Positions 25,489 through 43,011 of a stretch of DNA of 64,000 bases are shown piece after piece (the first letter of the stretch is position 1; each line of letters starts with the position of its first letter). The position numbers were made by a program, and so were the translations under genes. This stretch comes from an uncultured Lentisphaerales bacterium (lineage in GTDB: Bacteria > Verrucomicrobiota > Lentisphaeria > JABSQK01 > UBA12247). The notes beneath the pieces are model-generated. The model saw only the letters and a list, made by a program, of their open reading frames with translations, made no database searches and was not told where the DNA came from. The stretch lies in assembly GCA_943788985.1 (NCBI GenBank), contig CALSSJ010000012.1:171679-235678 (forward strand), in the 5' to 3' direction.

Positions 25489-25492
25489 ACCA

Positions 25493-28348
25493 ATGAGAAG
25501 CTCTGTGGATTTCGAACTGGAGGCCGAGAGCCTGCCCGACGGGATTGAGAAGGGCCGCCTGCTGGAGCGCGCCGCGGAGCTCTCCGAGCTGGATGGCGAC
25601 ACCTCCCGGGCCTTCGCCCTGCGCTACGCTATGCTAAGGGCGCAATATGGCTGCGCCGCAGACGAAAAGGTAATTGGTATCTTTTCTTGGATGGCGCGCA
25701 CGATCGACCGCGAGCCCGAAGTTCGCGCCCAGTGGACAGACTCATTCATGTGGCTCTACAAGTGGGTTTTGAATTCCTGTCAGCGGTTGAGTGCTATCCC
25801 GCGAGGAAAAATAGAGGCACTGCATGGCGACTATGAGCGGCGCGTGAGGGCGCTCGGCTACAGCCTGTATAGCGTCTACCAGCAGCGTATGGACCTTGCC
25901 TGCTACTTCGGCGAGCTGGACCAAGCAGAGGACTACTGGCGCCAGATGCGAACGCACAGCCGCGATGATCACTGCGACTGTGAGGCATGCGTGCCGAGCA
26001 ATGTTTCCACCCTGCTCAGGAAGTTGGGACGTCACGACGAGGCATGGCACCAGTACGACCGCGTGATCTGCGGGGAGCTATCGTGCGACCAAGTCCCGAG
26101 CGTGTCCTGGCCGAGGCTGGCGGTGCTGGCCTTAAACGCTGGAGACGAATCGCACGCTGCACTTTACGCGAATGCTTGGTCTGAAACTCTCACCAGGGTC
26201 GAGATTACTTACACGCTTGAGGATTTGATTCACTATATGTGGCGCCGTGGGCTCTGGGGCGATTTCCGTCACTACCTGCGCGTGCACGCCAATCCTACGT
26301 TCTTTTCGGTCATGAACCAAGTACCGATCTGGCGGGAGTTGGATGCGGCGCTGGTTCGCTTTGCGCCGCACTTCGCCGAGACTGAATTTCTAGGCCCGAT
26401 GCGCATCACGGACTCCTTCACTGTGAGTACCTGGGCAGAGTTGGCTGCGAAGGCACACGCGACTGTCGCCGAGGAAGACACGCGCTTTGACCGACGCAAT
26501 CGTACGCCACACTTTTGCGAGCAGCATCAAGCCAGGCTCGAGCGGGCAGAATCACTGCAGAGCGAGCCAGTCCATTCGGAGTTGACCACGGCTGCCAGCA
26601 GCCGCGACAGCGTGGCGTCAGCGGAGGAAGATGTCCGCTCAGAAAGTTTTGCGGAGTTCGCACAACGGTTTCGTGATGAGATCGAGTCATGCTACGGGTG
26701 GGAAGACGAGCGCCAGGCCCTGGCTGGTCTTGATGCTTTGGCATTGCTCGAGATTGTCCGGGACGGAGAAGCGGATGCCCGCAGCTACGCGGCGCTGCGG
26801 GAGCTTGCCGAGCACTACGCCGACTCCGTTGAGTGCGTCGCCGCGACCGCCCATCAGATCTACAATGACTGGCGTCCGTTCATGGCGCGCGCGGTTCTGC
26901 ATTATCGGGAGGACGTAAAGGGGCTGGATATGCTGCTGCCGGAAGTCCTGCGCTGGCCTTCGGATCTCACAGACTACCTGTTGCGACGCCTAGTGGAGCT
27001 AACTGCGGGAGCGGCCCGGAGCCGCTACGTATTGCGCACAGCGGAGATTGCCGCCCAACGTTACGAGGATGAGCAGGCCCTGGCATTGGTCGAGCAAGTT
27101 GAGAAGGCCCCGCCCACTGCGCTAGAAGACCAGTTCGCCCTCGGGCAACTGCTCAATCATCTGGGCGCACCTGAGCGCGCGCTTGACCTGTGGCCCAGCA
27201 TTCTTGAGCAAACCAGCGGGGAGATGTACCGCGAGGCGCTATTGGGCTCTGCCTATACCTATCACCAGTTGCAGGACTACGCCGCTGCGGAGGACACCTA
27301 CCGGACATGCCTTGGCATGTTTGAAGAGCCCCCGGTGAATCTGCTGCTGGCGCTGACTGCTAGCATTCGGCAACAGGACCGCCCAGGCGACGCTTTGCCC
27401 TTCGCCAAGCGAGCGCTCGAGGCGTCCGATTGGGAAACAGGGGCGTTCCTCGAAATTGGTCATTGCCAGTTCGATCTTGCGGAGTTCGCAGAAGCTGCCA
27501 GAAACTATGCGGAGGTATACCAATTCGACGACTCCTTGGAGATTGCCGAACGCTATGCATTGGCATTGCGCTATGCGGAAGACTACGCTGAGGCGGCGAC
27601 CGTCTTTCGTACCTGTCTCACGATGGCAGAGGAGGAGGAAGAACCGATGGAGGCGTTTCAGTTCGGCCTGGCATTCTGCATGATCGCTGCCAGACCATCG
27701 CCCACTGGTCGCAGGATGATGCGCGAGCTTATCTTGGGGGAGGGAGAGTTTGCTGCCGATGCGTTCTCAGCGCTGAAAGAGGATGTCTGTGAGCGCGATG
27801 GTGTGGCCAGTTGGTCCCGTGTGGTCGCTCTTTTGCTGAAACGGATGCCGAACAGCACCAAGGTCATCACCGAGCGTGCATGGTGTCTGCACACAGCCGG
27901 CAAAATCCGCGATGCCCATACGCTCCTCGAGGCCCATCGCGATGATGACCAGTGCTTGGCTCAGCTGGCGATGCTGCAGACCGATCGGGACGCCGCGTTG
28001 GACTTGCTTCCGCTAGACCGCGTGGCCGGATCCCCGTGGTTGCTGTTCGTGCGCTGGGATCAGCTCGCTGCGCTCGAGCGCTGGGCTGAAGCCGAGCAGA
28101 CGCTTCACGAAGTCGCAGAATTGCTTGGCGAGGTGCCATCTGTCGCCATCCGTCGGGCGGACCAACACGTAGCCCAGGAGGAGTACGCCAAAGCCGATGC
28201 AATTCTAGACGAGCAGTTCGAGAGGCTACAAGACCTGCGCATCCTCGAGCGACGCCTTGTTACGCTCGAGGCCCTCGGCGATACCGAGCAACTTGCCGCG
28301 GTCCGCAACATCGTGGATGCGGCGAATCTGGAAGAACCGGCGGAATAG
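25493..28348 (+). CDS. Large (951-aa) all-alpha TPR-like repeat protein, translationally coupled to the HSP90 paralogue
   Basis: The ATG is 5 nt after the htpG-like stop. There are repeated amphipathic motifs 'YA(E/A)AA..YRTCL.M.EE', acidic stretches, and no enzymatic motif was recognised. Confidence 0.6.
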   Translation: MRSSVDFELEAESLPDGIEKGRLLERAAELSELDGDTSRAFALRYAMLRAQYGCAADEKVIGIFSWMARTIDREPEVRAQWTDSFMWLYKWVLNSCQRLSAIPRGKIEALHGDYERRVRALGYSLYSVYQQRMDLACYFGELDQAEDYWRQMRTHSRDDHCDCEACVPSNVSTLLRKLGRHDEAWHQYDRVICGELSCDQVPSVSWPRLAVLALNAGDESHAALYANAWSETLTRVEITYTLEDLIHYMWRRGLWGDFRHYLRVHANPTFFSVMNQVPIWRELDAALVRFAPHFAETEFLGPMRITDSFTVSTWAELAAKAHATVAEEDTRFDRRNRTPHFCEQHQARLERAESLQSEPVHSELTTAASSRDSVASAEEDVRSESFAEFAQRFRDEIESCYGWEDERQALAGLDALALLEIVRDGEADARSYAALRELAEHYADSVECVAATAHQIYNDWRPFMARAVLHYREDVKGLDMLLPEVLRWPSDLTDYLLRRLVELTAGAARSRYVLRTAEIAAQRYEDEQALALVEQVEKAPPTALEDQFALGQLLNHLGAPERALDLWPSILEQTSGEMYREALLGSAYTYHQLQDYAAAEDTYRTCLGMFEEPPVNLLLALTASIRQQDRPGDALPFAKRALEASDWETGAFLEIGHCQFDLAEFAEAARNYAEVYQFDDSLEIAERYALALRYAEDYAEAATVFRTCLTMAEEEEEPMEAFQFGLAFCMIAARPSPTGRRMMRELILGEGEFAADAFSALKEDVCERDGVASWSRVVALLLKRMPNSTKVITERAWCLHTAGKIRDAHTLLEAHRDDDQCLAQLAMLQTDRDAALDLLPLDRVAGSPWLLFVRWDQLAALERWAEAEQTLHEVAELLGEVPSVAIRRADQHVAQEEYAKADAILDEQFERLQDLRILERRLVTLEALGDTEQLAAVRNIVDAANLEEPAE

Positions 28349-29879: not shown

Positions 29880-31500
29880 AAGGGCGTGGCGGGCAGCTGT
29901 GACCCCGCCGGCAAGGTACTGAGCGTGGTCACGTGCCATGTGCAGGATGCTGCCAATGGCTTCGTGAACTCCATGTGAGAGCACCAAGGCAAGCCCTGTC
30001 GTGTGGGGACTTGATCAATCTCTACAACGATGGCTCACCGGGCCCCACAAAGCCACCATTATGCCCGAGGCGGTCAACACCGCGCTGCATCAGTGGCTAC
30101 AGGACGAGGCCAACGTGCGTATACACCGCACCACAAACAAGCGCCCAGTCGACATGTTTGAGGAGGAAAAGCCAGCGCTACAACCACTTCCGGGCATCTC
30201 CCAGCCGTGCTGTGCGGTCGATCGTAGCGTCAGCAACAGTTGCTGTCGAATCACCGTCGGCGACAACTACTACAGCATCCCAGCTGCCTACGCTTCGTAG
30301 CGGCTGATCTTGCAGCGCGGAGTCGATCGCATTTGTGTAAGAACCACCGAGGACGTCTTCGTCGCCGAACATATCCGCGGCTTCGCTCGCAAGCGCCCAG
30401 TCATCGATCCGCAGCACGAGAAACAGATCGAAGACCTCACCAGCCGCGCCCGCCATAACCGGCAGGTTACCCTCTTCCTGCAACTCGGTAGCAGCGCATT
30501 CTCCTACCTGGACGGGCGCGAGGAGAAGCGCGTAAACTACCCGAGCCACATCCGGCGCATCAATGACGTTATTGCCACCTTTGGCTACGATCAGGTTGCT
30601 CGTGCCTTGGCTGAATACTAACGGTAAAACGGTGCCTGTGGCGCTGACCACATCCACAACCTACATGGTTTGCGTCTGCGCAAAAAACAGCAAGAAGCAG
30701 GTGGGCCCTTACATCTCACCAGAAAAGCCGACCTGCTCCATATCGAGTTTCCCCCGGCCAAACTCAAGCTCTACGATCAGGACACACAGCTATGACCGAA
30801 CGCCTCCGGGCCACGATTAAGGAACTCAACCCCAGCTAGATCGCTGATAACCTCGACATCGAAACTGCCGAAGCCATCCGGCTCTCACGTCCGGCCCATG
30901 ACCTCATCGAGCAGCTTTTCGAAGGCCCACTAGCTTATCGTCACAACCGCAGCGTCGAGCGCCGCATGCGTCAGGCCAAACTATCGCGGCGCAGGAGCTT
31001 GACTGACTTCGACTTCTACTGGCCATCGGTCATCAATGCCGACCAAGTTCGCGCGTTGTTCACCTTAGGCTTCCTGCGTGATGCAGACCAACATCGTCTT
31101 CATTGGCACCGTTGGCTTAGGGAAGACTCATCTTGCCTGCGCCCTCATCGCTAAAGCCTGCGAAAAGCGTAAGAACGCGTTGTTCAACCCATCAGTGAGC
31201 ATGATCAACGAGTTCATCGACGCTCGTAAATACGGTACGTTATCCAAAGCCATCAAGCGCTCCCTACGCTGCGATCTATTGGCCATCTACAAACCTGGTT
31301 AATTACCCATGGACAAACTCATTGCCGAGCTGGTATTTCGGGTTCTTGCAGGTCGTTACGAACGCGGCTCCACCATCATCACAATCAACCGTGTCTGCAA
31401 GGACTGGACCGTGACTTTTGCAGGTGACAGTGCAATGACGGCCGCCGTCCCAGACCGCATCGTCTATCATTGCCATACCGTTGTTATTGAGGAGTAGAGC
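29880..31500 (+). mobile_element. Decayed IS21-family element: 5'-truncated istA (C-terminal third only) plus frameshifted istB
   Basis: IstA C-terminus (ANVRIHRTTNKRPVDMFEEEKPALQPLP; …IDPQHEKQIED…) is split over two frames. IstB pieces (TNIVFIGTVGLGKTHLACALIAKA Walker A; IITINRVCKDWTVTFAGDSAMTAAVPDRIVYHCHTVVIEE) lie in three frames. No intact transposase and no terminal repeats were identified. Confidence 0.7.
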
Positions 31501-31590: not shown

Positions 31591-32175
31591 CTACTGAGGC
31601 CACCTCGGCATCTTCCGGAAGTCGTTTAGCATCGCCTCTTGACCTTGTGAGATGACCTCCGGTGTCGGATGTACGAGAGGGCATCCTTTTACGGCGATGC
31701 CCTTGCCGTAGACGTACCTTTCCAGTTGGACTAAAATCCCCGAGGCGATCAAGTCTTTCAGCGGCGATAGGACCGTGACCTCGGTCTCCGCCAGATTGAG
31801 AGTTCGCAGCGAAGCAAGGCCTGTGAAACAGGCAACAGATATTAGCTTGGAGTTGGCGCGGAGGTCGAGAGTGGGGATTATTATCAGGACCCAGGCGATT
31901 GCCCAGGCACACTCGTTATCAATCTGGCAACGCCATAGGATAAGCGAGCGCAGCCGTTTGAGAGGCTTTAGCTTCTCTGCGACGTCCTCGCAAGTTTCCT
32001 TGAGTTGGCTAACCTGCTTTGCTCGTAGTTCAGGCTGCCACTCCGGCGGCGAGGGTGAGAGCCACCTGTCATGCCCGAGTAGAGCAAAGTCTTCTCGCCC
32101 TTCATCGCGGACCCGGGCAATGACAGCGTCCAGTTGCTAGTGCGTAATCCGCGGCAGCGTTCCCTCTCTGGCCAT
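31591..32175 (-). pseudogene. Leucine-rich-repeat-like hypothetical protein interrupted by an in-frame TAG at codon 13
   Basis: Minus strand: AAGGA-ATG MAREGTLPRITH-TAG-QLDAVIARVRDEG…LKPLKRLRSLILWRCQIDN…LASLRTLNLAETEVTVLSPLKDL… (LxxLxLxxN-type repeats). The in-frame stop sits at 32137-32139. Confidence 0.35.
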
Positions 32176-32475
32176 CCTTCTGACTCTCGTATGTATACTC
32201 TTTATCTAGGCTGCTTCGGGGCCGTATGGCGGCGCACATTTTATGCGTTCATGTGCAGTGAAATAAGAGGCAAATGCCAAAGATGAAGGCACTGACGGAA
32301 AGTTTTGCGAATTTCTCGCTATACTGCTCGGAGTGACAGCTCGGCGCGAGCTGGCGGGGGGGCTTAGTCAACGACGGGAGTCGCGTGGGACGCTGTGAAG
32401 ACCCGGCGGAAGAACGGCACTGCCGTGCCTGACTACGAACAACGAAATCGTCCAAGGGACGATTGGATCAGCAGG

Positions 32476-34446
32476 TCAGACGACGCGGTCGTTGCCGCCA
32501 TCGATCGGGATCTGCGCCCCGGTGGTCCGGGCGAAGAGGGGGCCAGCAAGGGCTTCGACTAAGGCGGCGACTTCCTGGGAGGAAACTGCGGTCTTGAGCA
32601 GATTGCGGGTGGTGTACTCGGAGACGGTCAGGCCGTAGTTGGCAGCTCGGGTCTCGAGCACGCCATCAGACCAGATGCCGGTGTCGTAGACAGCGTCAGG
32701 ATGAAGGATGTTGACGCGGATGTTGTCGGCGGCTAGTTCGAGCGCGGCGACGCGTACGAGCTGGGTGAGACCGGCTTTAGCCGCGGAATAGGCGACGGCG
32801 CCGGGACCCGGTGCCGGGACGTTCTTGCTGCCGATGACGACGATAGCTGGATCGATGCCCGCACGGAGAAAGGGGATGCTGACCTGGAGTAGATTTTTGT
32901 GCTGGGTGAGGTTGAGCTGCAGGCTCTGGTCCCAGGTTGCATCGCTGAGGGTTTCGATTGGCTCGCCTGGGCTAAAGACGCCCGCGTTGCTGACGACGAT
33001 GTCGAGGCCACCGAAGTGGCGCACTGTGGCGTTTACTGCCTGGCGGATGGCCTCAGGATTGCGCAGATCGCAGATGAGACCGAGGGCCGCCGGGCTGTTG
33101 AAGAGCGTGGTGATTTTTGGGTCTACGTCCAGTGCGACGACGGCCGCGCCAGACTTGAGAAACTGTTCGCAGGTGGCGCGGCCAATGCCGCTAGCGGCAC
33201 CGGTGACGAGGGCAATCTTGCCGCGAAGAGGTGGGGCACTTGCTTGCTTGCGAAGTTTGGCTTGCTCGAGCTCCCAGTACTCGACGTCGAAGATGTCAGC
33301 TGGGGAAAGGGCTTCCCAGCCGCCGAGGGATTCGGCAAGCTGCACGACTTTTGCGGTATGGGCCGCGATGTCGGCGATGATCGCAGCTTCGCGGCTGTCT
33401 GCACCGAGGGCGATGAGCCCGGCACCTGGCCAGATGGCCCAGCGCGGGGCCGGGTCGAGGCAGGTCAGGCCGTCCTGATTGTGCTGGTCGAAGTAGGCGC
33501 GGTAGGCGCTGGCGTAGTCGGAGATGTCTTGCTCGGCGTTGCCAGTCAAGACAACGGGCGTGCGCTTGGTCCGAATGGAATGGTCGGGAGTGACGGGGCC
33601 GCGGGCGCCAATCGTTGCGATGTCGGCACGATCAGCGTAGGCTCGCAGGGCAGGGCTGTCGTCCAGCTTGGCGAGGACTGGGATGCCGCGGAAGCGTGAG
33701 ACGCAGGCGCGCAGCTTTGCCAGAGCCTGAAGGTCTATGGCGGGCTCAGCGGTGGCGCGTGGGGCTAGGGAAGCGCGACTGCTGAGGTATTCTTCTGCCT
33801 GGGTGACGAGCTTGATGTGTTGCTCGTACGAGGCTCGGGCATCGTCATGAAAGGTGAAGAGGCCGTGATTGAGCAGGACGATGCCGTCGAGTTGGTCCCA
33901 GTCGACGTCGCGGGTGCGCTCGTAGACTGCTTTGGCGAGGACGAAGCCAGGCATGACATAGGGAATGGTGAGGATCCGGGGGCCGAAGACTTCGCGGACG
34001 CGGGCTTCATTGTCGGGCGCGTTAGTGATCGCCAGGACGGCGTCTGCGTGGGAGTGGTCGACAAAGCGGAAGGGAATGATGGCGTGCAGGATGGCTTCGA
34101 CGGAGGCGTTGGGGGCACCCGGATCGAGCATGGCGAGGCGCTGTTGGCGGACCATCTCGGTGTCGGACAGGGATGCGCATTTTGCCAGTTGGAGGAGGAC
34201 GTCGAGGCGGAGTGGTGCGAACCCCGCAACTTCGATGGTGGCAAGGTCCCAGCCGCTTCCTTTGACGAACAGGGTCTCGAGCGGCGTGCCGAAGAAGTCA
34301 TTCTCGGTCATCTTGACGCTGGTGTTGCCGCCGCCATGGAGGACGAGGTCAGGGTCTTGCCCGAGCAGGCGTGAGGTGTAAACGCGCAACGCTTTTGGGT
34401 CGTCGCCACAAGCGGCTGCTGCTGAATCATTCCAGAGGCTTTTCAT
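32476..34446 (-). CDS. Bifunctional class II aldolase (adducin/RhaD-like N-domain) / short-chain dehydrogenase-reductase fusion
   Basis: N-terminal aldolase-family domain (LHGGGNTS, HSHADAVLA) plus a C-terminal SDR (TGAASGIGRA, NAG, YSAAKAG). Its ATG overlaps the mtnA stop (ATGA). Confidence 0.8.
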   Translation of the reverse strand: MKSLWNDSAAAACGDDPKALRVYTSRLLGQDPDLVLHGGGNTSVKMTENDFFGTPLETLFVKGSGWDLATIEVAGFAPLRLDVLLQLAKCASLSDTEMVRQQRLAMLDPGAPNASVEAILHAIIPFRFVDHSHADAVLAITNAPDNEARVREVFGPRILTIPYVMPGFVLAKAVYERTRDVDWDQLDGIVLLNHGLFTFHDDARASYEQHIKLVTQAEEYLSSRASLAPRATAEPAIDLQALAKLRACVSRFRGIPVLAKLDDSPALRAYADRADIATIGARGPVTPDHSIRTKRTPVVLTGNAEQDISDYASAYRAYFDQHNQDGLTCLDPAPRWAIWPGAGLIALGADSREAAIIADIAAHTAKVVQLAESLGGWEALSPADIFDVEYWELEQAKLRKQASAPPLRGKIALVTGAASGIGRATCEQFLKSGAAVVALDVDPKITTLFNSPAALGLICDLRNPEAIRQAVNATVRHFGGLDIVVSNAGVFSPGEPIETLSDATWDQSLQLNLTQHKNLLQVSIPFLRAGIDPAIVVIGSKNVPAPGPGAVAYSAAKAGLTQLVRVAALELAADNIRVNILHPDAVYDTGIWSDGVLETRAANYGLTVSEYTTRNLLKTAVSSQEVAALVEALAGPLFARTTGAQIPIDGGNDRVV

Positions 34447-35501
34447 ACGGAGGAGTCGGCTGGTTCGTAGAGGTTTGCCAGGTTGGTGGCGTAGGGGGGA
34501 AGCACGAGCCCGCGATCGGTGATAAGCCCGGTGACTAGGTCATGCGGCGTGACGTCGAAAGCTGGATTGCGCACTTGTATGTTCTCGGGGGCGGTGCGAC
34601 GGGCGCCAAAATGGGTGACTTCTTCGGCGCTGCGCTCTTCGATCGGGATGCCGCTGCCGTCGGGGGTGCTGAAGTCGATAGTGGAGGAGGGCAGGGCGAC
34701 ATAGAAGGGGATGCCAAAATGCTTGGCGCAGATGGCGACGCCGAGGGTGCCGATCTTGTTGGCCACGTCACCGTTAGCAGCCACGCGGTCGGTGCCGGTA
34801 ATGACGAGGTCGATCTCACCGGATGCCATCATGTGAGCGGCCATGTTGTCGGTAATGGCGGTGACGTCGATGCCGCTGCGCTGAAGCTCCCAGCAGGTGA
34901 GGCGGGCGCCTTGGAGGAGCGGGCGGGTTTCGTCGGCAAAGACGCGAAAGTTGCGGCCCTGTTGCTGGGCGATGTACATGGGGGCGAGGGCGGTGCCGAT
35001 GCCAGAGGTAGCGAGAGCGCCAGCGTTACAGTGTGTGAGGACACCCATTCCATCTTGGATCAACGGCGCACCATGTTCGCCCATGGCCTGGCACAAGGCT
35101 TGGTCTTCGGCGTGAATTTTCTGGGCCTGGGTGACGAGCGCATCGTACATTTGCGCGGCGGCCAGGTTGCTGAGGGATTCTGCTTTGCGGAGCATGCGAT
35201 CCAGCGCCCAGCTGAGGTTTACAGCGGTTGGGCGAGAGTCCGCGAGATAGGCGGCTTGTGCGCGCAGACCGGTGAGGAAGGCGGCGGGACTGGCGTTACG
35301 GAGTTCGCAAACCGCAACAAGTAAGCCATAGGCGGCGGCAACTCCGATGGCTGGCGCACCGCGGACTTTGAGCTGCTTGATGGAGTCCCAGACTTGCTCA
35401 GCGCTGGTCTGCTCTTCCATCACTTCTTCCAGCGGCAACCGGGTCTGGTCCAGAAGGAAGAGGGCGCCATTGCGCCAGCTAACAGTTTCAGGGAGCGTCA
35501 T
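34443..35501 (-). CDS. mtnA: S-methyl-5-thioribose-1-phosphate isomerase (eIF-2B alpha/beta/delta family)
   Basis: MTLPETVSWRNGALFLLDQTRLP…RGAPAIGVAAAYG…CNAGALAT…GTDRVAANGD…NKIGT are hallmarks of MtnA. The ORF track extends upstream to a TTG start at 35921. The ATG chosen is about 420 nt inside that ORF and the coordinate is ±2 nt. Confidence 0.8.
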   Translation of the reverse strand: MTLPETVSWRNGALFLLDQTRLPLEEVMEEQTSAEQVWDSIKQLKVRGAPAIGVAAAYGLLVAVCELRNASPAAFLTGLRAQAAYLADSRPTAVNLSWALDRMLRKAESLSNLAAAQMYDALVTQAQKIHAEDQALCQAMGEHGAPLIQDGMGVLTHCNAGALATSGIGTALAPMYIAQQQGRNFRVFADETRPLLQGARLTCWELQRSGIDVTAITDNMAAHMMASGEIDLVITGTDRVAANGDVANKIGTLGVAICAKHFGIPFYVALPSSTIDFSTPDGSGIPIEERSAEEVTHFGARRTAPENIQVRNPAFDVTPHDLVTGLITDRGLVLPPYATNLANLYEPADSSV

Positions 35502-35773
35502 GGGACGGACAATACTGCGAATCTGCTGGCAAGCAACTGCTAGCAGTCTGTCGGACTTGGGATGATCCGCTGCAAACCTGCGCGACTTCGGATTATTTCG
35601 CGGGTAATTTGGGTTGGGTACGCAGGGGCATCGGCGAGGTGTCCCCAGTGCACCGGAGCATCCAAAATCCCTCTCGCACTCACCTGCCAATTTACGATTC
35701 ACCACACTAGTGCCTTTTGACTTGATAACGCTGGTGCATAGGGTCGGCGATCGAAACAGCGAAGGAGAGGGGC

Positions 35774-37330
35774 ATGGCCGTAGCGGAGACCTCGGAGCGA
35801 CACACGGAGACTGAACTGGCTGACGCTCCGGAGAACAACCTGATGCAGAGGCTGTTTTGTTCTCCCAACCGTGTCTTTTTGATCTCGTTTGTGCTCTTGC
35901 TGCTCTATAACATCGAGGCAATCCAGGATCCTCCGTATTGGGACGAGATCGTGGGGCGTTTTAATACGGCTATTTTGTTGAAACAGACGGGGTGGGACTT
36001 TAGGCAGCTGTTCGTGCTTGAGCCGGGCTATTATGAGGGCGGATCGGCAATCGGAAAGTCCTTTTTGCTTACCTATGTAGAGGCTGTGATGTATGCGGTT
36101 CTGCCGCCGGCTGCGATTTTTGTGCTGCTGCATGTGATGACGATCGCTCTGGCAGCACTGGCCTTTACGTTGTCGTTCGTGCTGCTGGAAAAGCGTGTTG
36201 GTGCTGGTCTGGCTGGGCTCTGGTCGGGGGCAGCAGCGATGCTGCCGATGTGGAATGGGCAAACGGCGGCGCTGGGCAATGATGTGCCGGCCGCAGCCGC
36301 GGTGATGCTTGGACTCTACGCGTTCGACCGGGAACGATATGGCTGGTGTTGTGGTTGGGTGCTTCTGGCGTACCTGTTGAAATCCACGGGGATCATCTTG
36401 GCCCTAGCGCTGGTGACTTGGGCGGTGATTACAGCGGTGGCGGCGTGGCGCACGTCGCGGGTTGAGAGACAGTTTAGTGGAAGGGATATTAGCTTGTTGG
36501 TCGGGCCACTGCTGCTGATCATTGGGCTGCGGTTTGGTGTTGATTACGGCGAGGGGATGGAGGGCGGCGCACAGCACTTGGCGCAAGGACTGGGCCGGGT
36601 GATGGGGTATGGAAAGTTGTGCATCCCGCTTCTGTGCTTGAGTGTCCCGGTGCTGATTCTGGTAAGCGCTGGCTTCTTTCTGCGCAAGGGACTGTGGGCC
36701 CGGATTCTTGCGCATCGCTTGGAGTTGATGATTACGATTCTGGTGCTGGGTTTTTGGGCTTCGTTTGTTCTGTATGTGCACTCGCTGCCTCGGTATGCGT
36801 CGTTCGCGGTGTTTCCGACCGCGATGGCGATGTGCCTGATGCTGCCGCGACGGGTGGCCACGGGCCTGGGCATGGTTGTGCTTTGCTGGGGGGCGATCAA
36901 CCAGCATGGGCTGTTGCTGCCGAAGTTGCCGTCGTACGTCGGGCGCTCTGGCGAGTATTTGGAGCGGAGCCGTGAGTACTTGGAGGATCTGGCGAGTAAC
37001 CGGGCGCTTTGCAAATACCTGGAGGAGAATCACTTTGAGCGAACGATTGTGACCAAGTACCCGCACCTGCACATGCTGTGCTTGCCGGAACTGGGGTATG
37101 TGAGTCGGGCGCTGCCGAACGTGGTCGGGACAGGACTGGTGCCGACCACGGGAGCTGCCAAGCTGTTGCCAAAGGGGCAGGTGATCCCTGCTGGAGCGCT
37201 GGTGCTGTATGCGCCGAGCACGTTCGACTTGCTTTGCGATGTTTCTTTAATGCCTGGCCCCAAAGATCGGTTGATCGAAGGCGATCAGAGCCTGGCCACG
37301 CCTGTCCTGATCTATGAGCGGGGCCAGTAG
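35774..37330 (+). CDS. Polytopic integral membrane protein (about 12 TM, possible GT-C-type glycosyltransferase-like)
   Basis: Many hydrophobic helices plus a C-terminal soluble ~130-aa domain. No specific catalytic motif was recognised. Confidence 0.45.
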   Translation: MAVAETSERHTETELADAPENNLMQRLFCSPNRVFLISFVLLLLYNIEAIQDPPYWDEIVGRFNTAILLKQTGWDFRQLFVLEPGYYEGGSAIGKSFLLTYVEAVMYAVLPPAAIFVLLHVMTIALAALAFTLSFVLLEKRVGAGLAGLWSGAAAMLPMWNGQTAALGNDVPAAAAVMLGLYAFDRERYGWCCGWVLLAYLLKSTGIILALALVTWAVITAVAAWRTSRVERQFSGRDISLLVGPLLLIIGLRFGVDYGEGMEGGAQHLAQGLGRVMGYGKLCIPLLCLSVPVLILVSAGFFLRKGLWARILAHRLELMITILVLGFWASFVLYVHSLPRYASFAVFPTAMAMCLMLPRRVATGLGMVVLCWGAINQHGLLLPKLPSYVGRSGEYLERSREYLEDLASNRALCKYLEENHFERTIVTKYPHLHMLCLPELGYVSRALPNVVGTGLVPTTGAAKLLPKGQVIPAGALVLYAPSTFDLLCDVSLMPGPKDRLIEGDQSLATPVLIYERGQ

Positions 37331-37403
37331 GGCGGGAAAACCCGGCCTGTTTTCAGGGAAGTACGTTGCGTTCAGGCAGAGCTGTTGTACTTAGGCGTAA
37401 CGA

Positions 37404-38792
37404 TTGAATGGTTTTGGGGGACTCATGCACAAGCCGTCTAGCCAGACGTCCAGACCGAATATCGTCTTTTTTCTGCTGGATGATCTCGGGATCAAGGATC
37501 TGGGCTGCTACGGCAGCGCGTTTCACGAATCGCCACGCATTAACCAAATGGCTGCGGAGGGGATGCGGTTTACGAATGCGTACGCCTCGCATCCAGTCTG
37601 TGGGCCTTCGCGGACTGCGATTCTGTCCGGGCGATCGCCCGGACGGCTGGGCGTGACGAACATTGGCGGGAAGATCGCGGGGGCTGGCGTGCCGTGGCCG
37701 AAGGTGCTGCAGGAGGCGGGCTACGCGACCTGCTTTGTCGGGAAGTGGCATATGGGCTCGCGGGAATCGGTGCTGGAGAGTGGTTTCGATGTGAACGTGG
37801 CTGGCTGCGAAATTGGGCAGCCTTCTGACTTCTACTATCCGTACCGGTTCTATGACGATGGGCGAGCTTGCGACGGTGATGTCCCTGATATGGCGGATGG
37901 CAAGCCTGGGGACTACCTGACTGACAAGCTGACCGATAAGGCGCTCGACTTTGTGGAGGCGCATCAGGAGGAACCGTTCTTGGTGTACCTCTCGTATTAT
38001 CAGACGCACAAGCCTCGAATTGCACCGGCACAGGGCAAGAAGGAGCATGTGGCGCACTTTCAACAGAAACTGGCGGGAATGCCAGAGCCTGCTGGTCCGA
38101 CGACGCGGGTAGAGGTGCACGGCGAGGCGCAAACCGTGGAGTGCCTGGTGCAACGCAATGCGGAGTTCGCAGGGCAGATCAAGGCGGTGGACGACAATGT
38201 CGGGCGGGTTCTTGACCGATTGGAAGAGCTGGGGCTGGCTGAGAATACGATCGTGATCTTCACGGCGGATCAGGGGAGCGTCTGCACGAGCGAGGAATTC
38301 ATGGTGTCGAGTCAGCAGCCGTACCGGCTGGGCAAGGCCTGGATGTTCGACGGTGGGCTGCGGGTGCCGTTTTTGGTGCGTTGGCCGGGAATGGTTCCGG
38401 CGGGAGCGAAGAGTGACGTGGTGACAATTAGCACCGATCTTTATCCGACGATGTTGGCGGCAACTGGGCTGCCGGGGCGGCCTGAGCAGCATCAGGATGG
38501 GGCGAGTATTTTACCGGTTCTGTGCGAGGAGAAAGGCTTGCCTGAGCGGGCGCTGGTGTGGGTCTATGATTATGACCACGGCGAGCTTGGGCATAAGGCA
38601 TCTGTGGCGATCCGCCATCGGGGGCACAAGCTGATTTACTGGCTCGGCGACGGCCATGCAGAACTTTATGATTCGGAGACCGATGTGGCTGAGGCGCAGG
38701 ATCTCAGCGCGGAGTATCCGCAGCTGGTGGCATCCATGATTGATGAATTGAAACAAGTGGACTACATGGAGCAGTACCTATGTCAGAGTTGA
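37404..38792 (+). CDS. Formylglycine-type sulfatase without an obvious signal peptide
   Basis: IVFFLLDDLGIKD and CGPSRTAILSG (C-x-P-x-R), GKWH. The N-terminus MNGFGGLMHKPSSQTSRPN is not hydrophobic. An alternative start is at 37425. Confidence 0.8.
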   Translation: MNGFGGLMHKPSSQTSRPNIVFFLLDDLGIKDLGCYGSAFHESPRINQMAAEGMRFTNAYASHPVCGPSRTAILSGRSPGRLGVTNIGGKIAGAGVPWPKVLQEAGYATCFVGKWHMGSRESVLESGFDVNVAGCEIGQPSDFYYPYRFYDDGRACDGDVPDMADGKPGDYLTDKLTDKALDFVEAHQEEPFLVYLSYYQTHKPRIAPAQGKKEHVAHFQQKLAGMPEPAGPTTRVEVHGEAQTVECLVQRNAEFAGQIKAVDDNVGRVLDRLEELGLAENTIVIFTADQGSVCTSEEFMVSSQQPYRLGKAWMFDGGLRVPFLVRWPGMVPAGAKSDVVTISTDLYPTMLAATGLPGRPEQHQDGASILPVLCEEKGLPERALVWVYDYDHGELGHKASVAIRHRGHKLIYWLGDGHAELYDSETDVAEAQDLSAEYPQLVASMIDELKQVDYMEQYLCQS

Positions 38793-40723
38793 CGGTGCCG
38801 GGAATTTTTGGTAATGGGATGGTTTTGCAGTGCGAGGCACCTGTGCCGGTGTGGGGCAAGGGGCCTGCGGGCGCTGAGATTTCGGTCTGCTTGAGGGCCA
38901 AGATGGCACGGGCACGCGTGGCGGATGATGGCTGTTGGCGGCTGGAACTGGAGCCACTGGCTGCCAGTGCAGAGCCGGCTGAGCTGCGAATTTCGGCAGA
39001 ACCGGCTGCGGTGAATGGCAGCGTGACGATTCAGAACGTCCTGGTGGGCGAGGTCTGGGTTTGCTCCGGGCAGTCCAATATGGAATGGATTCTGCGTGAT
39101 ACGGAGAATGCGGTGGTGGAGATTGCGGGAGCGGACTACCCGGAGATTCGCCGGTTTAAGGTTCCGCATTTGAGTGAGTTCGAAGAGCAGGATGACTGCC
39201 CCGGAAGCTGGGCAGTGTGCTCGCCCGAGACTGCAGCGTCCTTTACCGCGGTCGGGTACTACTTCGCAAAGGGGATTCGGCGCAGCAAGGATATTCCGGT
39301 GGGACTGATCAGCTCAAACTGGGGCGGGACGCCGGTCGAGAGCTGGAGCAGCCTGCCCGCTCTTCGGGCGCACGCAGACTGGGCAGATTTCGAGAAGCGG
39401 ATCGCCGCTGTTCAGGAAACGCTGGCTGATCCGGAGAATGGAGATGATGTACGGGAGTCCGCAGCTTTTGCCCAGGCTCAGGAGGCATGGGATGTGCTGG
39501 CCGACTCGGAGCAGGCGTTTGCGCGGGTAGGGTTTGACGATAGCGCCTGGGACACGATGCTGGTGCCGCAGTTGTGGGAGAAGGTGGGGCTTGAGGTGGA
39601 CGGGGTGGTCTGGTTCAGGACGACGATCGAGCTACCGGCGGACTGGGCAGGCGAAGATGCGGTGCTAAACTTGGGCCCTGTGGACGACTACGATAATACG
39701 TTCTGGAATGGGACGCGGATCGGCGGTGTGGGGCCGGATACGGCGAACTCGTGGCAAGTACCACGGCAGTACACGATTGCTGGAGAGCTGATCAAGCCGG
39801 GGCGTAATTTGCTGGCGGTTCGTGTGTTCAATGTGATGGGGGCCGGGGGGATCTGCGGGACGCCCGAGGGATTGGCGCTTTGCCGCGCGAGCGGAGGAGC
39901 GGGGCTCAACCTGGCAGGTGATTGGCGCTATCAAGTTCATCTGCGCCGGCCGTTGGGGGAACCACTTAATATGGGCTGGTTGCCGGGCGGGCTGTACAAC
40001 GCGATGATCCATCCGCTTATTTCGTATGGGATTCGCGGGGTAATCTGGTATCAGGGCGAGTCGAATGCGGATCGGGCTCTTCAGTATCAAACGCTTTTTG
40101 CCGATATGATTCGGGACTGGCGGTCGGCATGGGGGCAGGGAGACTTTCCTTTCTATTTTGTGCAACTGGCCAATTTTAATGAGCCGCAGACGGAGCCCGG
40201 AAGTGGGAATTTTGCGGAGCTGCGGGAAGCGCAAACGATGGCTTTGGCACTGCCAGAGACGGGGATGGCTGTGATCGTAGATATTGGCGAAGCCGTGGAT
40301 ATCCATCCGCAGAACAAGCGCGATGTGGGCGAGCGTCTGGCAGTGATCGCGCGGAACCAGATTTATGGTGAGCCGGAGCTGGTTTACTCAGGACCGCTGT
40401 ACGAGTCGCAGCAGGCCGTGAATGGCAGGCTGCAGCTCAAGTTTACGCACGCTGGTACTGGGATTACCACGGCCGAGATTCACAGCGAAGGGAAGTACAC
40501 GGTGCGGGAGCCGGGCAAGATCGCACCGAGCGGTTTCGCGTTGGGCAAGCCTGATGGGAGTTGGGTCTGGGCGCAGGCTCGGATTGTCGGGCTGGACACG
40601 ATTGAGCTCTGGCATGATGAGGTACCGGCGCCCAGCGATGTTCGCTATGGCTGGCACGACAACCCGGTGTGCAATGTCTACAATCGCGAGGGCTTGCCCG
40701 CCGTTCCGTTTCGAACTCGATAA
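38780..40723 (+). CDS. Sialate O-acetylesterase (SASA/DUF303 domain) family protein
   Basis: …GMVLQ…, the GEVWVCSGQSNMEW catalytic block (GDS-like Ser), and a second domain duplication. Confidence 0.75.
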   Translation: MSELTVPGIFGNGMVLQCEAPVPVWGKGPAGAEISVCLRAKMARARVADDGCWRLELEPLAASAEPAELRISAEPAAVNGSVTIQNVLVGEVWVCSGQSNMEWILRDTENAVVEIAGADYPEIRRFKVPHLSEFEEQDDCPGSWAVCSPETAASFTAVGYYFAKGIRRSKDIPVGLISSNWGGTPVESWSSLPALRAHADWADFEKRIAAVQETLADPENGDDVRESAAFAQAQEAWDVLADSEQAFARVGFDDSAWDTMLVPQLWEKVGLEVDGVVWFRTTIELPADWAGEDAVLNLGPVDDYDNTFWNGTRIGGVGPDTANSWQVPRQYTIAGELIKPGRNLLAVRVFNVMGAGGICGTPEGLALCRASGGAGLNLAGDWRYQVHLRRPLGEPLNMGWLPGGLYNAMIHPLISYGIRGVIWYQGESNADRALQYQTLFADMIRDWRSAWGQGDFPFYFVQLANFNEPQTEPGSGNFAELREAQTMALALPETGMAVIVDIGEAVDIHPQNKRDVGERLAVIARNQIYGEPELVYSGPLYESQQAVNGRLQLKFTHAGTGITTAEIHSEGKYTVREPGKIAPSGFALGKPDGSWVWAQARIVGLDTIELWHDEVPAPSDVRYGWHDNPVCNVYNREGLPAVPFRTR

Positions 40724-40742
40724 GGAGTCGGAATCACAAAAC

Positions 40743-43004
40743 ATGAAGAGCCTGATAGTCATGAGTTTAATCACTGCCACATTTGCTGCGACAGCAGAGG
40801 AAACATTACCCGCACTGAAGGATGGCACGGGGCCGCAAAATTTTGAGGAGCTGTGGGCTGGTTTTGACCCGCAGGCGGAGCCGCTGGATGTGGAGGTACT
40901 GCAGGAATGGGAAGAGGATGGAGTGCTGTTGAAGGTGCTTCGCTATCGCATCGGTGTGTTCAAGGGGCAGAGGGCGATGATGGCGGCTGTGTATGGTGCG
41001 CCGAAGGACGGCAGCGACTTGCCAGGGTTGGTGCAGATTCACGGTGGTGGCCAGTACGCGCACTCGAATGCTTGCCTGACTAATGCGAAGCGTGGCTACG
41101 CGACCCTTTCGGTCGCTTGGGCTGGGCGGCTTTCGGGCGGGGGCTATCATGTCAGCCCGGGCGTGGTGAAGCTCTACTGGGAAGGCAAAACCGATGACCC
41201 GAGTTATAAAGTGACGACTGATTGGGGCGCGTTGGACGGGTATCACGCGCCGTTTCGCTATCAGCATGCATTTTCGGTTGCGAAGCCCCATGAGCACTCG
41301 TTCGACGCGGTGGCTTCGCCACGGAATGACTCCTGGTTTCTCTGTGCGCTCGGAGCGCGCCGAGCCCTGACATTTCTGGAGCGGCAGCCAGAGGTGAATG
41401 GCGAGAAACTTGGCGTCTATGGGCACTCGATGGGCGGCAAGCTTACGGTGATGACAGCCGGTGCAGATGCTCGGGTGAAAGCCGCAGCTCCGTCCTGTGG
41501 CGGAATCAGCCATCGCAATGATAAGGATCCGCTGATTTCTACGACGACGTGCGATGATGTGTACTTGAAGCGCTTGAGCTGTCCGATCATGTTCTTGAGC
41601 CCGGCGAACGACTTTCACGGCCGGATCGATGACTTGGAAACGGCAGTTAGGGAGATCAAAACTGAGGAATGGCGAATTACTTCGGCCGCGCATCATAACC
41701 ACCAAGACACTGCTGACTATGAGGTCGCGACGCAGTTGTGGATGGACGAGCACCTAAAGGGTACGTTTAGCTGGCCGGAGACGCCGCAGGTGGAGCTGAC
41801 GCTTGTGGGTAAGGAGATGCCCGAGGCGCTGGTGACTCCGGATGCGTCACGGCGAATTTTGTCGGTGGATGTGTATTATTCGCAGCAGTTTGATCAGCCA
41901 GCCGGGGATCGGTTCTGGCATTATGTGGCACCTGTTCAGAACGGTGGAAGCTGGCTGGCCAAGCTGCCGCTGCACAGTGTGGACAAGGAAGTTGCGGTGT
42001 TCGCGAACATACGCTATGCCTTGGACGAGCCGGTTACGGGGGCAGGCTACTACTACGGAATCTACACGACGGAGGCAGCAAACCTTTCGTCCTTGCTACA
42101 GGTGATCAGCGTCAAGGAGTTGAAGGCGGCGAAGATCGGCGCGACGATGAAGCAGTCGCAGCTGATTGAGAGTTTTGAGGGGGATTGGGAGAAGGAGTGG
42201 TTTACGTACAAGCAAGATCCGGCGCTGTGGGGAAGAACCACGCGGAAGGCCTGTGACGATGCCTACCGGGCTCCGGCCTTTGCTAAGCTGGCCCTCGAGG
42301 TTCAGGCCGAGCAGGCGAATACACTGAGGGTGGGGCTGGGCCAGATGAACGCTGAAGTCGCGCTGGAGGGTGGGGGCAATTGGCAGGAGGTCGTACTATT
42401 TCCCGTGGACTTTGCGGATGCTGATGGCGCCGTCCGGCTTGACTGGGAGGGCGTTTGGGAGCTTTCGCTGGACAAGAGCGGAAAGTGGCAAGGAGCCGCG
42501 CCAGCGTTTCGGAATCTGCGTTGGCAGGAGGGGATGCGCGAGGAATTGAATGCGCGCCGTGAGGTGAAGCTGCTCCAGGCACCAGTCGTGGCTGGCAAGG
42601 TTTTCTTGGACGTCGAGTATGCGGATGCGGCGACGCACGGTTACAAGATCGCGATGAATAGCTGGCTAGATGGGAAGCCACTGGTAAGAGACGGGAAGAC
42701 CTACGCCAACGGGCTTAGTACTCATGCCGCTTCGGAGCTGGTCTTCTTTCTGGGCGGGAAGTTCGAGGGGTTCGATGCCATTGCGCTAGCCGGGCCGGGC
42801 GCCACAGTCGCTTTCTCCGTGCGCGTCGATGGTGCCACGGTGTTCGAGAGCGGGGCGCTTAAGCCGGACCAGTCCAAGCCCATTGCCCTGTCTTTACGCG
42901 GTCGGCAGGAGCTGAAGCTGGTCGTGACAGACGGCGGCAATGGCAAGGGCGGCGATCACGCCTGCTGGTTGGACGCGCAACTGACGCTGTCCGCTGAGAA
43001 GTAG
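40743..43004 (+). CDS. Acetyl-xylan-esterase-like alpha/beta hydrolase fused to a C-terminal NPCBM (carbohydrate-binding) domain, with signal peptide
   Basis: Signal peptide; AXE1-like GHSMGG nucleophile elbow. The C-terminal NPCBM pattern is …GLSTHAASELVFFLGGKFEGFDAIALAGPGATVAFSVRVDG…LKLVVTDGGNGKGGDHACWLDAQL. Confidence 0.75.
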   Translation: MKSLIVMSLITATFAATAEETLPALKDGTGPQNFEELWAGFDPQAEPLDVEVLQEWEEDGVLLKVLRYRIGVFKGQRAMMAAVYGAPKDGSDLPGLVQIHGGGQYAHSNACLTNAKRGYATLSVAWAGRLSGGGYHVSPGVVKLYWEGKTDDPSYKVTTDWGALDGYHAPFRYQHAFSVAKPHEHSFDAVASPRNDSWFLCALGARRALTFLERQPEVNGEKLGVYGHSMGGKLTVMTAGADARVKAAAPSCGGISHRNDKDPLISTTTCDDVYLKRLSCPIMFLSPANDFHGRIDDLETAVREIKTEEWRITSAAHHNHQDTADYEVATQLWMDEHLKGTFSWPETPQVELTLVGKEMPEALVTPDASRRILSVDVYYSQQFDQPAGDRFWHYVAPVQNGGSWLAKLPLHSVDKEVAVFANIRYALDEPVTGAGYYYGIYTTEAANLSSLLQVISVKELKAAKIGATMKQSQLIESFEGDWEKEWFTYKQDPALWGRTTRKACDDAYRAPAFAKLALEVQAEQANTLRVGLGQMNAEVALEGGGNWQEVVLFPVDFADADGAVRLDWEGVWELSLDKSGKWQGAAPAFRNLRWQEGMREELNARREVKLLQAPVVAGKVFLDVEYADAATHGYKIAMNSWLDGKPLVRDGKTYANGLSTHAASELVFFLGGKFEGFDAIALAGPGATVAFSVRVDGATVFESGALKPDQSKPIALSLRGRQELKLVVTDGGNGKGGDHACWLDAQLTLSAEK

Positions 43005-43011
43005 GCGTCGG

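Follow-up and report, generated by a model that had tools for sequence, protein, structure and literature searches.

An aldolase/short-chain dehydrogenase fusion encoded with mtnA in a Lentisphaerales bacterium: a candidate enzyme for the completion of SAM by-product salvage

The mtnA locus and the encoded fusion protein

The window, i.e., the complete stretch of 64,000 nucleotides analyzed here, harbors mtnA and a gene encoding a class II aldolase/short-chain dehydrogenase (SDR) fusion (Table 1). MtnA was identified by matches to TIGR00512 (salvage_mtnA; 442 bits, cut-off 279), NF004326 (480 bits, cut-off 271) and Pfam IF-2B (E 3e-87), and its start at 35501 agrees with the model alignment, which opens at residue 6. 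The mtnA stop codon TGA (34445-34443) overlaps the ATG of the fusion gene (34446-34444) as ATGA, which suggests co-transcription and translational coupling. A sequence-only reading of the locus had described mtnA as translationally coupled to a class II aldolase/SDR fusion, and this description is borne out by the overlap and by the HMM and Pfam matches. The intergenic region upstream of mtnA also precedes a divergent gene for a membrane protein (35774-37330, forward strand), and a promoter scan of this region detected no sigma-70-like site. Furthermore, the Rfam scan of 30-37 kb yielded neither a SAM riboswitch nor any other RNA match. The terminator-like hairpin behind the fusion gene represents weak evidence, since such sites are as numerous in the region as expected by chance.

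Table 1. Features of the mtnA/fusion locus with their positions in the window.
Feature	Position	Strand	Basis
Terminator-like hairpin, 12 nt past fusion stop	32446-32464	-	Consensus scan; weak
Aldolase/SDR fusion gene, 656 aa	32476-34446	-	Pfam, NCBIfam
Classical short-chain dehydrogenase domain, fusion residues 401-656 and stop codon	32476-33246	-	Pfam adh_short
Middle domain, mostly helical, fusion residues 226-400	33247-33771	-	Conservation, AlphaFold2 model
Class II aldolase domain, fusion residues 1-225	33772-34446	-	Pfam Aldolase_II, PDB 3m4r
ATGA overlap, 4 bases common to mtnA stop and fusion start	34443-34446	-	Read from sequence
mtnA, S-methyl-5-thioribose-1-phosphate isomerase, 352 aa	34443-35501	-	TIGR00512, NF004326, Pfam IF-2B
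Intergenic region upstream of mtnA, presumed promoter region	35502-35773		ORF map

The fusion is a member of family NF006196 (PRK08324.2-4, 'bifunctional aldolase/short-chain dehydrogenase'), which it matches over residues 1-656 with 900.8 bits (cut-off 831); no substrate is assigned to this family. The closest homologues of the fusion (P0002) are 67% identical, and identities of 57-67% were observed in Verrucomicrobia-type bacteria, Chloroflexi, Gemmatimonadota, Gamma- and Zetaproteobacteria as well as in some cyanobacteria. Within the aldolase domain, residues 22-220 match Pfam Aldolase_II, and comparison with PDB 3m4r gave 42% identity and a target-normalised TM-score of 0.93. Residues G38-G39-G40-N41-T42-S43, K45, E117, H131, H133 and H194 of this domain are at least 97% conserved among 84 orthologues. 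The middle domain was modeled by AlphaFold2 with pLDDT values mostly between 86 and 97; it matches NCBIfam models of the fusion family only, is restricted to this fusion superfamily, and its conserved residues include R246, P287, D288, H289, K294 and E389-Y390-W391. In the C-terminal domain (Pfam adh_short, residues 410-591), G416/G420/G422, D440, N487, N512, S540, Y553 and K557 are conserved, and the hallmarks of classical SDRs are present, namely G416xxxG420xG422, the NAG motif N487-A-G489 and the Asn-Ser-Tyr-Lys tetrad N512/S540/Y553/K557. Accordingly, metal ligands as well as SDR catalytic residues of the fusion are intact. Strand beta-2 ends with D440, which by the established SDR rule indicates NAD(H) as cofactor. 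Foldseek searches with the model of the fusion returned 3m4r for the aldolase domain and otherwise generic SDRs, with no full-length structure among the matches.

Relationship to RhaEW and rhamnose genes of the genome

RhaEW, an L-rhamnulose-1-phosphate aldolase/L-lactaldehyde dehydrogenase represented by Bacillus subtilis YuxG and Chloroflexus aurantiacus Caur_2283, is the only characterised relative of the fusion. Both belong to one superfamily and share the three-part architecture of class II aldolase, middle domain and C-terminal SDR; moreover, the His triad H131/H133/H194, the phosphate loop, the SDR residues S540/Y553/K557 and the NAD-type Asp of RhaEW are kept in the fusion. Many homologues of the fusion are labelled 'rhamnose utilization protein RhaD' by JGI, and the fusion routinely receives the wrong label of a rhamnose enzyme. 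Against the model TIGR02632 (RhaD_aldol-ADH) it reaches 422 bits and thus stays under the cut-off of 567.75, whereas the RhaEW proteins of genomes G203, G167 and G035 score 967-1080 bits, those from the window's phylum reaching 967-991. True RhaEW proteins of this phylum are 28-29% identical to the fusion, and in the tree the fusion clade stands apart from them on a long branch with a support of 100. G167 and G035 each carry both the fusion type and RhaEW, and the RhaEW-type gene of G203 adjoins rhaB. At otherwise invariant sites the fusion clade possesses E117 and H37 where RhaEW proteins have D and T, respectively; furthermore, P112 and M165 of the fusion clade correspond to R, and Y163 and F199 to W. 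Orthologues of RhaEW were reported to occur always within rha loci (PMC3870299), and the fusion gene lies outside such a locus. For RhaEW, a dependence of aldolase turnover on the SDR has also been reported.

Since the assembly is 83.6% complete, genes missing from it are provisional absences. It contains two rhaA genes and rhaB (TIGR02627, 468 bits), all on contigs other than that of the window, as well as a rhamnosidase gene. The earlier remark that no rhamnose genes lie nearby is correct in that the contig of the window holds none. Neither RhaD nor a RhaEW-type aldolase was found in this 83.6%-complete genome, and the fusion is present once. A tblastn search that used two RhaEW queries from this phylum detected no truncated RhaEW gene beside rhaB, where an integrase gene is located. 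Rhamnose genes without RhaD or a RhaEW-type aldolase were likewise seen in a second genome of the phylum, G208. The fusion may therefore act on rhamnulose-1-P as well, or in place of the salvage substrates. Firm clustering of the aldolase domain with RhaD, together with rhamnose catabolic genes elsewhere in the same regulon, had been named in advance as refuting a salvage role; half of this combination applies, as rhamnose genes exist elsewhere in the genome and no other rhamnulose-1-P aldolase was found, which weakens the salvage reading.

Gene context and co-occurrence in related genomes

In order to characterize the surroundings of the fusion gene, 160 related loci were inspected, 80 from genomes and 80 from metagenomes. 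The proteins encoded at the genome loci are 48-59% identical to the query within the segment that aligns best, and orthologues were recognized by family score and tree. Genes for MtnA or other functions of methylthioadenosine salvage lie beside the fusion gene in about 25 of the 160 loci, a count that overstates independence, as many loci belong to organisms related to one another and some of the metagenome contigs repeat loci of the genome set. MtnA represents the commonest neighbor family, found in 9 of the 80 genome loci from at least six lineages and in differing arrangements. The metagenome replicate contained mtnA, mtnP, apt or mtnK inside 5 kb at 16 of 80 loci. Linkage to salvage genes is limited to about 11-20% of the related loci, which counts against a salvage role. 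Operon-like clusters were found in Polyangiaceae, with the order mtnK (TIGR01767, 481 bits)-mtnA-fusion, and in a zetaproteobacterium, with the order fusion-mtnP (NF006492, 517 bits)-apt-mtnA. The rhamnose genes rhaA, rhaB, rhaM and rhaT were present in none of the 160 loci. The four other NF006196-type genes of the window's own phylum (G167, G173, G208 and G219) lack an mtnA gene in the surrounding 6 kb or so, which likewise counts against a salvage role, and the coupling described here is no conserved trait of the phylum.

Among 50 genomes with an orthologue of the fusion, MtnA exceeded its cut-off in 46; for comparison, its frequency in the phylum of the window is 29% (201 genomes). MtnB exceeded its cut-off in four of these 50 genomes, any class II aldolase match to the MtnB model (E<=1e-10) was obtained in 16, and RhaA was present in a single one. 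Orthologues are common in autotrophs without RhaA, such as Zetaproteobacteria, sulfur-oxidising symbionts and Crocosphaera. In cyanobacteria, genes of the NF006196 type were restricted to about 11 out of 151 sampled genomes, and the fusion was consequently rejected as a general answer to the cyanobacterial gap downstream of mtnP and mtnA.

Regarding further salvage genes, for which the sequence-only reading had recommended a search for mtnP and mtnK, the 83.6%-complete genome yielded no MtnK, MtnN, ARD/MtnD or RuBisCO-like protein and no MtnB above the cut-off. An MTAP-like phosphorylase of the thioadenosine type was found on contig C8, scoring 182 bits and hence below the MTAP cut-off of 275; its gene adjoins one for a TRZ/ATZ deaminase.

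Proposed pathway and alternative explanations

The by-products MTA and 5'-deoxyadenosine arise in every SAM-using cell and inhibit the enzymes producing them. In the DHAP shunt, also serving 5-deoxyribose disposal, they are processed by MtnP, or MtnN and MtnK, followed by MtnA and Ald2/DrdA, a FucA-like aldolase of about 215 aa. This shunt occurs in Rhodospirillum rubrum, extraintestinal E. coli and Bacillus thuringiensis. The locus resembles it in the upstream MtnA, here coupled to a gene for an aldolase fold, and orthologues of the fusion occupy the ald2/drdA position in mtnK-mtnA-X and mtnP-mtnA-X layouts; the putative products, DHAP and an aldehyde, would also be the same. In contrast to Ald2/DrdA, the aldolase of the fusion is of the RhaE type, and the protein comprises an additional middle domain and SDR, so that the aldehyde would be handled on the same polypeptide. 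Scanned alone, the aldolase domain matched no FucA, MtnB, RhaD or AraD model at E<=0.01 and was recognized by models of the fusion family only. Given these results, a tree of the domain with Ald2 and DrdA would rely on a very poor alignment. Judged by these profile models, it appears not to be of the Ald2/DrdA/FucA type, and its classification as such an aldolase is not upheld. The fusion would work like Ald2/DrdA and yet not belong to that family.

A second system acting on the MtnA product comprises MtnB and plant DEP1, MTRu-1-P dehydratases of the class II aldolase fold with a side aldolase activity on 5-dRu-1-P. The fusion shares this fold and the presumed position after MtnA, and DEP1 is likewise a fusion enzyme (PMC6079011). 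Differences are that the aldolase domain of the fusion has no significant match to the MtnB model, that its partner is an SDR and not the HAD phosphatase of DEP1, and that later genes of methionine salvage are missing from this 83.6%-complete genome.

Based on gene context and phyletic distribution, a DHAP-shunt-like pathway is proposed in which the fusion finishes SAM by-product salvage downstream of MtnA; taken as a whole, this reading is considered fairly probable. In the first step, the deaminase and the thioadenosine/thioinosine-type phosphorylase, whose genes adjoin each other at another site of the genome, would provide 5-methylthioribose-1-P or 5-deoxyribose-1-P. MtnA would then isomerise these compounds to the ribulose-1-phosphates, a step well founded by family membership. 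For the third step, gene context and phyletic pattern suggest that the metal-dependent class II aldolase domain cleaves the latter to DHAP and 2-(methylthio)acetaldehyde or acetaldehyde. Finally, the fused NAD-type SDR would convert the reactive aldehyde at once. For the fused DHAP-shunt module put forward in the sequence-only reading, a role in place of Ald2 is supported by the gene clusters, by the presence of MtnA in most orthologue-bearing genomes together with the rarity of MtnB and RhaA, and by the clade distinct from RhaEW. The reductase step assigned to the SDR became doubtful, as RhaEW uses NAD+ to convert its aldehyde oxidatively into the acid and gave no activity with NADH (PMC3870299), and as Asp440 is conserved. 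By analogy to RhaEW, the acid (2-(methylthio)acetate or acetate, along with NADH) would be a slightly likelier product than the alcohol.

Rhamnulose-1-P differs at C4 from MTRu-1-P and 5-dRu-1-P, and hence a RhaE-type fold would need an altered stereopreference for the proposed reaction. The putative substrate of the fusion differs from that of RhaEW in its C4 configuration and in a non-hydroxylated tail; MTRu-1-P and 5-dRu-1-P possess the 3R,4R stereochemistry of fuculose-1-P (PMC6079011). This point also bears on the alternative that survives best, namely that the protein acts promiscuously as a ketose-1-phosphate aldolase/aldehyde dehydrogenase and serves SAM by-product salvage as well as L-rhamnose catabolism (rhamnulose-1-P to DHAP and lactate). 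Such dual use would account for the rhaA, rhaB and rhamnosidase genes of a genome holding a single fusion and no RhaD or RhaEW, for the recurrence of this pattern in G208, and would accord with the many aldehydes accepted by class II DHAP aldolases (PMC6079011). It is nevertheless regarded as unlikely, because RhaA is missing in 49 of the 50 orthologue-bearing genomes, both types are kept separate where they co-occur (G167, G035), the two substrates differ in C4 stereochemistry, and the unassembled 16% of the genome could hold a RhaEW or RhaD gene.

Alternatively, the aldolase-fold domain may act as a dehydratase, epimerase or decarboxylase, as in MtnB, AraD and OtnC, on the MtnA product or another sugar phosphate, with the SDR reducing or oxidising the result in an undescribed branch distinct from the DHAP shunt. 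The class II aldolase fold supports all three reaction types, a replacement of MtnB is conceivable given its absence from most carriers, and no role is known for the conserved middle domain; however, RhaEW as the nearest relative with characterised activity is a genuine aldolase yielding DHAP, and in this genome, where ARD/MtnD is missing, no pathway is known that would take up a dehydratase product, which makes this option improbable. Least of all can the fusion be expected to be an ordinary, divergent RhaEW with an accidental mtnA overlap, an explanation drawing on the shared two-domain architecture and superfamily, the JGI naming and the rhamnose genes of the genome, but opposed by the TIGR02632 score, the position outside a rha locus unlike that reported for characterised RhaEW orthologues (PMC3870299), the lack of rha genes in all related loci, the recurrent linkage to mtnA, mtnK, mtnP and apt in several arrangements, and the RhaA-free autotrophs among the carriers.

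Concerning the preferred salvage pathway, two gaps have been documented: for the DHAP shunt, the enzyme that converts the aldehyde is stated as unknown (PMC13474568), and some organisms encode only mtnP and mtnA without any known downstream enzyme (PMC8102628). The fusion, which is very conserved, may fill both of them, that is, the aldehyde conversion and the step after the first salvage genes. In the literature searched, no publication describing it as completing an MtnA salvage route was found. More tentatively, and with somewhat less than even confidence, NF006196 fusions could supply the terminal enzyme so far missing from a widespread form of SAM by-product salvage that has not been described, in which a RhaE-type aldolase was recruited independently of Ald2/DrdA and the SDR turns the aldehyde oxidatively into 2-(methylthio)acetate or acetate with formation of NADH. 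If this oxidising route is true, the toxic aldehyde would never be released, the route would be energy-yielding, and many genomes with an 'orphan' MtnA would be explained. Furthermore, if the overall pathway holds, thousands of annotations would need correction.

The mtnA–fusion operon and candidate salvage genes of the genome

The overlap of mtnA with a gene encoding a class II aldolase fused to a short-chain dehydrogenase (SDR), described in the sequence-only reading, is real, as deduced from family scores and an ATGA motif in which the mtnA stop codon shares bases with the ATG of the fusion gene. For mtnA, the ATG form was preferred because family-model alignments begin at its residue 6; a longer, TTG-started ORF reaching 35921 is unsupported. 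Flanking esterase and membrane protein genes and degraded insertion-sequence fragments are unrelated to mtnA and the fusion gene, which thus constitute a two-gene operon. A terminator-like hairpin is located 12 nt past the fusion stop codon, the frequency of such sites here being no higher than chance, and no riboswitch was found at the operon. GC skew reaches +0.17 to +0.26 across approximately 12 kb (window positions 32001-44000, genes on both strands); upstream of this segment it does not exceed approximately +0.05, and over both flanks it ranges from -0.09 to +0.07.

Features of the operon and of further loci (positions within the window unless a contig or locus is named)
Location	Strand	Feature	Details
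35501-34443	minus	mtnA	352 aa; TIGR00512 442 bits (cut-off 279); Pfam IF-2B E 3e-87
34446-32476	minus	fusion gene	656 aa; three parts (Pfam aldolase 22-220, middle, SDR 410-591)
30966-31497	plus	remnant resembling degraded IS21-type IstB helper ATPase (by eye)	three successive ORF fragments, differing frames; Walker A motif GLGKTHL in piece 31078-31302; just downstream of the operon
23677-28348	plus	two overlapping genes	603-aa HATPase_c_3/HSP90-like protein gene overlaps start of 964-aa TPR-containing protein gene
4233-4976	plus	DeoR-family regulator	first of three genes in a row
4993-6036	plus	Zn-dependent alcohol dehydrogenase	threonine/idonate dehydrogenase type; after DeoR-family gene
6086-6799	plus	class II aldolase	stand-alone; weak best matches OtnC, FucA, all under cut-off
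L001 (contig C8:20386-24069)		purC, 238-aa phosphorylase, TRZ/ATZ amidohydrolase	adjacent, one strand
L005:1444-2511 (contig C12)		355-aa homologue of aldolase and middle domains	~33% identity; ~20 kb past window end; adjoins esterase
L092:8725-11946 (contig C17)		rhaB, phage-type integrase gene	integrase after rhaB, opposite strand
L073:6682-7926		NupC-family nucleoside transporter	near fusion gene of a comparison locus
G005:C42:19414-21413		second MtnA-like paralogue, class II aldolase-like ORF	paralogue directly 5' of ORF; comparison genome

Within the assembly (4.58 Mb, 48 contigs, 83.6% complete), mtnP and mtnK were sought elsewhere. The C8 phosphorylase best matches MTAP (182 bits, under the cut-off of 275) and methylthioinosine phosphorylase, and the neighboring amidohydrolase is of the 5'-deoxyadenosine/MTA deaminase type. 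This pair suggests an entry route with the deaminase acting first and the phosphorylase second, and the locus likely represents an entry module for the breakdown of MTA and 5'-deoxyadenosine. MtnK, MtnN, MtnB above cut-off, ARD/MtnD and a RuBisCO-like protein were not found in the 83.6%-complete genome.

The fusion protein in relation to RhaEW

With 900.8 bits, the fusion exceeds the 831-bit cut-off of the NCBIfam equivalog NF006196 ('bifunctional aldolase/short-chain dehydrogenase'), while at 422 bits it stays below the 567.75 required by the rhamnose-specific model TIGR02632. Homologues from Verrucomicrobia, Chloroflexi, Gemmatimonadota, Gamma- and Zetaproteobacteria and cyanobacteria show 57-67% identity, which is an unusually high conservation between phyla. 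In scans of the isolated domains, both the aldolase and the middle part matched fusion-family models only, with no FucA, RhaD, MtnB or AraD match at E<=0.01. For the aldolase domain, the only relative of solved structure is 3m4r, which shares 42% identity and represents the N-terminal domain of a Thermoplasma protein as yet uncharacterised. The AlphaFold2 model of the fusion is confident (mean pLDDT 88.3, pTM 0.88). Among 84 orthologues, the phosphate loop G38-G39-G40-N41-T42-S43, K45, E117 and the metal-binding histidines H131, H133 and H194 are at least 97% conserved, as are the SDR residues G416/G420/G422, D440, N487, N512, S540, Y553 and K557. Judging from these metal-binding and SDR residues, both active sites appear intact, and Asp440 points to NAD(H), not NADP(H), by an established SDR rule. 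Since the 355-aa protein encoded at L005 is devoid of an SDR domain, the aldolase and middle domains also occur as a free-standing unit.

In total, 201 genomes of the window's phylum were sampled. NF006196-type genes were detected in the genome under study, G167, G173 and G208 (and, slightly under cut-off, G219), and approximately 20 genomes encode another fusion type scoring 320-350 bits on NF006196. The two second-type fusions scanned, from G203 and G167, are true RhaEW, i.e., rhamnulose-1-P aldolase/lactaldehyde dehydrogenase (TIGR02632 991 and 967 bits), and the G203 gene adjoins rhaB. Both types coexist in G167 and in the Roseiflexaceae genome G035. In a maximum-likelihood tree, all 84 NF006196-type sequences form one clade, separated from RhaEW by a total branch length of approximately 3.4 changes per site. 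Invariant residues of this clade that differ in RhaEW (E117, there Asp; H37, Thr; P112 and M165, Arg; Y163 and F199, Trp) are candidate specificity determinants. The fusion is set apart from RhaEW by its score below the TIGR02632 cut-off, the identity of 28-29% to the G203 and G167 proteins, and the separate clade with support 100.

Rhamnose genes and the expected reaction

On other contigs, the genome harbors a rhamnulokinase-like rhaB (contig C17) and two rhaA genes, whose products share 52-60% identity with E. coli RhaA; rhamnosidase and sulfatase genes adjoin one of the two rhaA copies. Whereas rhaB is followed by RhaEW in G203, an integrase gene follows it here, and no RhaEW remnant was found at this site. 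Neither RhaD nor an RhaEW-type gene was found in the genome, which encodes a single aldolase/SDR fusion; likewise, G208 possesses rhamnose genes with no RhaD or RhaEW found. A rhamnose role of the fusion, sole or additional, is therefore possible in both genomes. Alternatively, the rhamnulose-1-P aldolase gene may reside in the unassembled 16% of the genome. The stand-alone aldolase of the window may represent an alternative enzyme of fuculose/rhamnulose type, or even one resembling Ald2; homologues were not found in G208, G203, G173 or G219. In the sequence-only reading, firm clustering of the aldolase domain with RhaD, together with rhamnose genes elsewhere in the same regulon, would speak against the proposed function. 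Rhamnose genes do exist elsewhere in the genome; the fusion lies outside the RhaEW clade, and rhaA, rhaB, rhaM and rhaT were found at 0 of 160 fusion loci (80 genome and 80 metagenome).

At C4, rhamnulose-1-P has a configuration other than that of the MtnA products MTRu-1-P and 5-dRu-1-P. The latter are 3R,4R-configured (PMC6079011). Owing to this difference, the NF006196 subfamily would require a stereopreference unlike that of RhaEW, consistent with its deep divergence.

The SDR domain was previously assumed to act as a reductase, which is doubtful: RhaEW converts rhamnulose-1-P and NAD+ to DHAP and lactate and is inactive with NADH (Rodionova et al., PMC3870299). By analogy with the NAD+-dependent oxidation by RhaEW, and given the conserved NAD-type Asp440, the fusion would be somewhat more likely to turn 2-(methylthio)acetaldehyde or acetaldehyde into the corresponding acid than into the alcohol. 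According to a 2026 review, the enzyme reducing 2-methylthioacetaldehyde is unknown (PMC13474568).

Gene context and co-occurrence with MtnA

Among 80 loci on contigs sampled at one genome per species, MtnA was the commonest neighbor family of the fusion (9/80). The mtnA-linked loci originate from Arcobacter, Polyangiaceae (two), Pseudohongiellaceae (two), Bacteriovoracaceae, a zetaproteobacterium and a Rhodocyclales member and, including the window, occupy at least six separate places in the tree. The remaining recurrent neighbors, with no rhamnose gene among them in these 80 loci, were the housekeeping genes proS, fabA, cAMP phosphodiesterase, OxyR and SfsA, and a NupC-family nucleoside transporter, the latter at four loci (L073 and three more). 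Clusters were arranged as mtnK-mtnA-fusion in Polyangiaceae (mtnK TIGR01767 481 bits) and as fusion-mtnP-apt-mtnA in the zetaproteobacterium (mtnP NF006492 517 bits). Both layouts match known ones of the DHAP shunt (MtnA followed by the Ald2/DrdA aldolase), with the fusion in the ald2/drdA position. Furthermore, salvage genes were located within 5 kb of the fusion in 16 of 80 metagenome loci, some of whose contigs repeat genome loci, so that the samples are not fully independent: nine fusion-mtnP-apt(-mtnA), two mtnK-mtnA-fusion and five mtnA-fusion or fusion-mtnA.

Within the 50 genomes encoding a fusion orthologue, MtnA scored above cut-off in 46, compared to 29% of the 201 sampled genomes of the window's phylum. 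MtnB exceeded its cut-off in four, any class II aldolase matching the MtnB model (E<=1e-10) occurred in only 16, and RhaA was present in one. The unpublished genome G048 (locus L083) is one of the 50 behind each count and supplies a single row of the tree, and none of the claims depends solely on it. In G002, G005, G006 and G043 (Omnitrophota/Planctomycetales), a second MtnA-like paralogue (~200 bits) exists beside true MtnA, directly 5' of a class II aldolase-like ORF; this arrangement, present alongside the fusion, resembles a DrdI-DrdA pair. Rapp et al. noted a gap in genomes possessing only mtnP and mtnA (PMC8102628); the fusion as its general answer in cyanobacteria was ruled out by its occurrence in just ~11 of 151 genomes.

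A full-text search, mostly outside subscription journals, retrieved no paper tying the fusion to MTA or 5'-deoxyadenosine salvage. Regarding the proposed pathway, the reductase detail is doubtful, and the predicted role downstream of MtnA is supported by context, co-occurrence and clade: comparative genomics provides good support for a proposed participation of the fusion in SAM by-product salvage after MtnA. Given MtnA in 46 and MtnB in four of the 50 carriers, most carriers lack a known consumer of the MtnA product, which leaves the fusion as the candidate.
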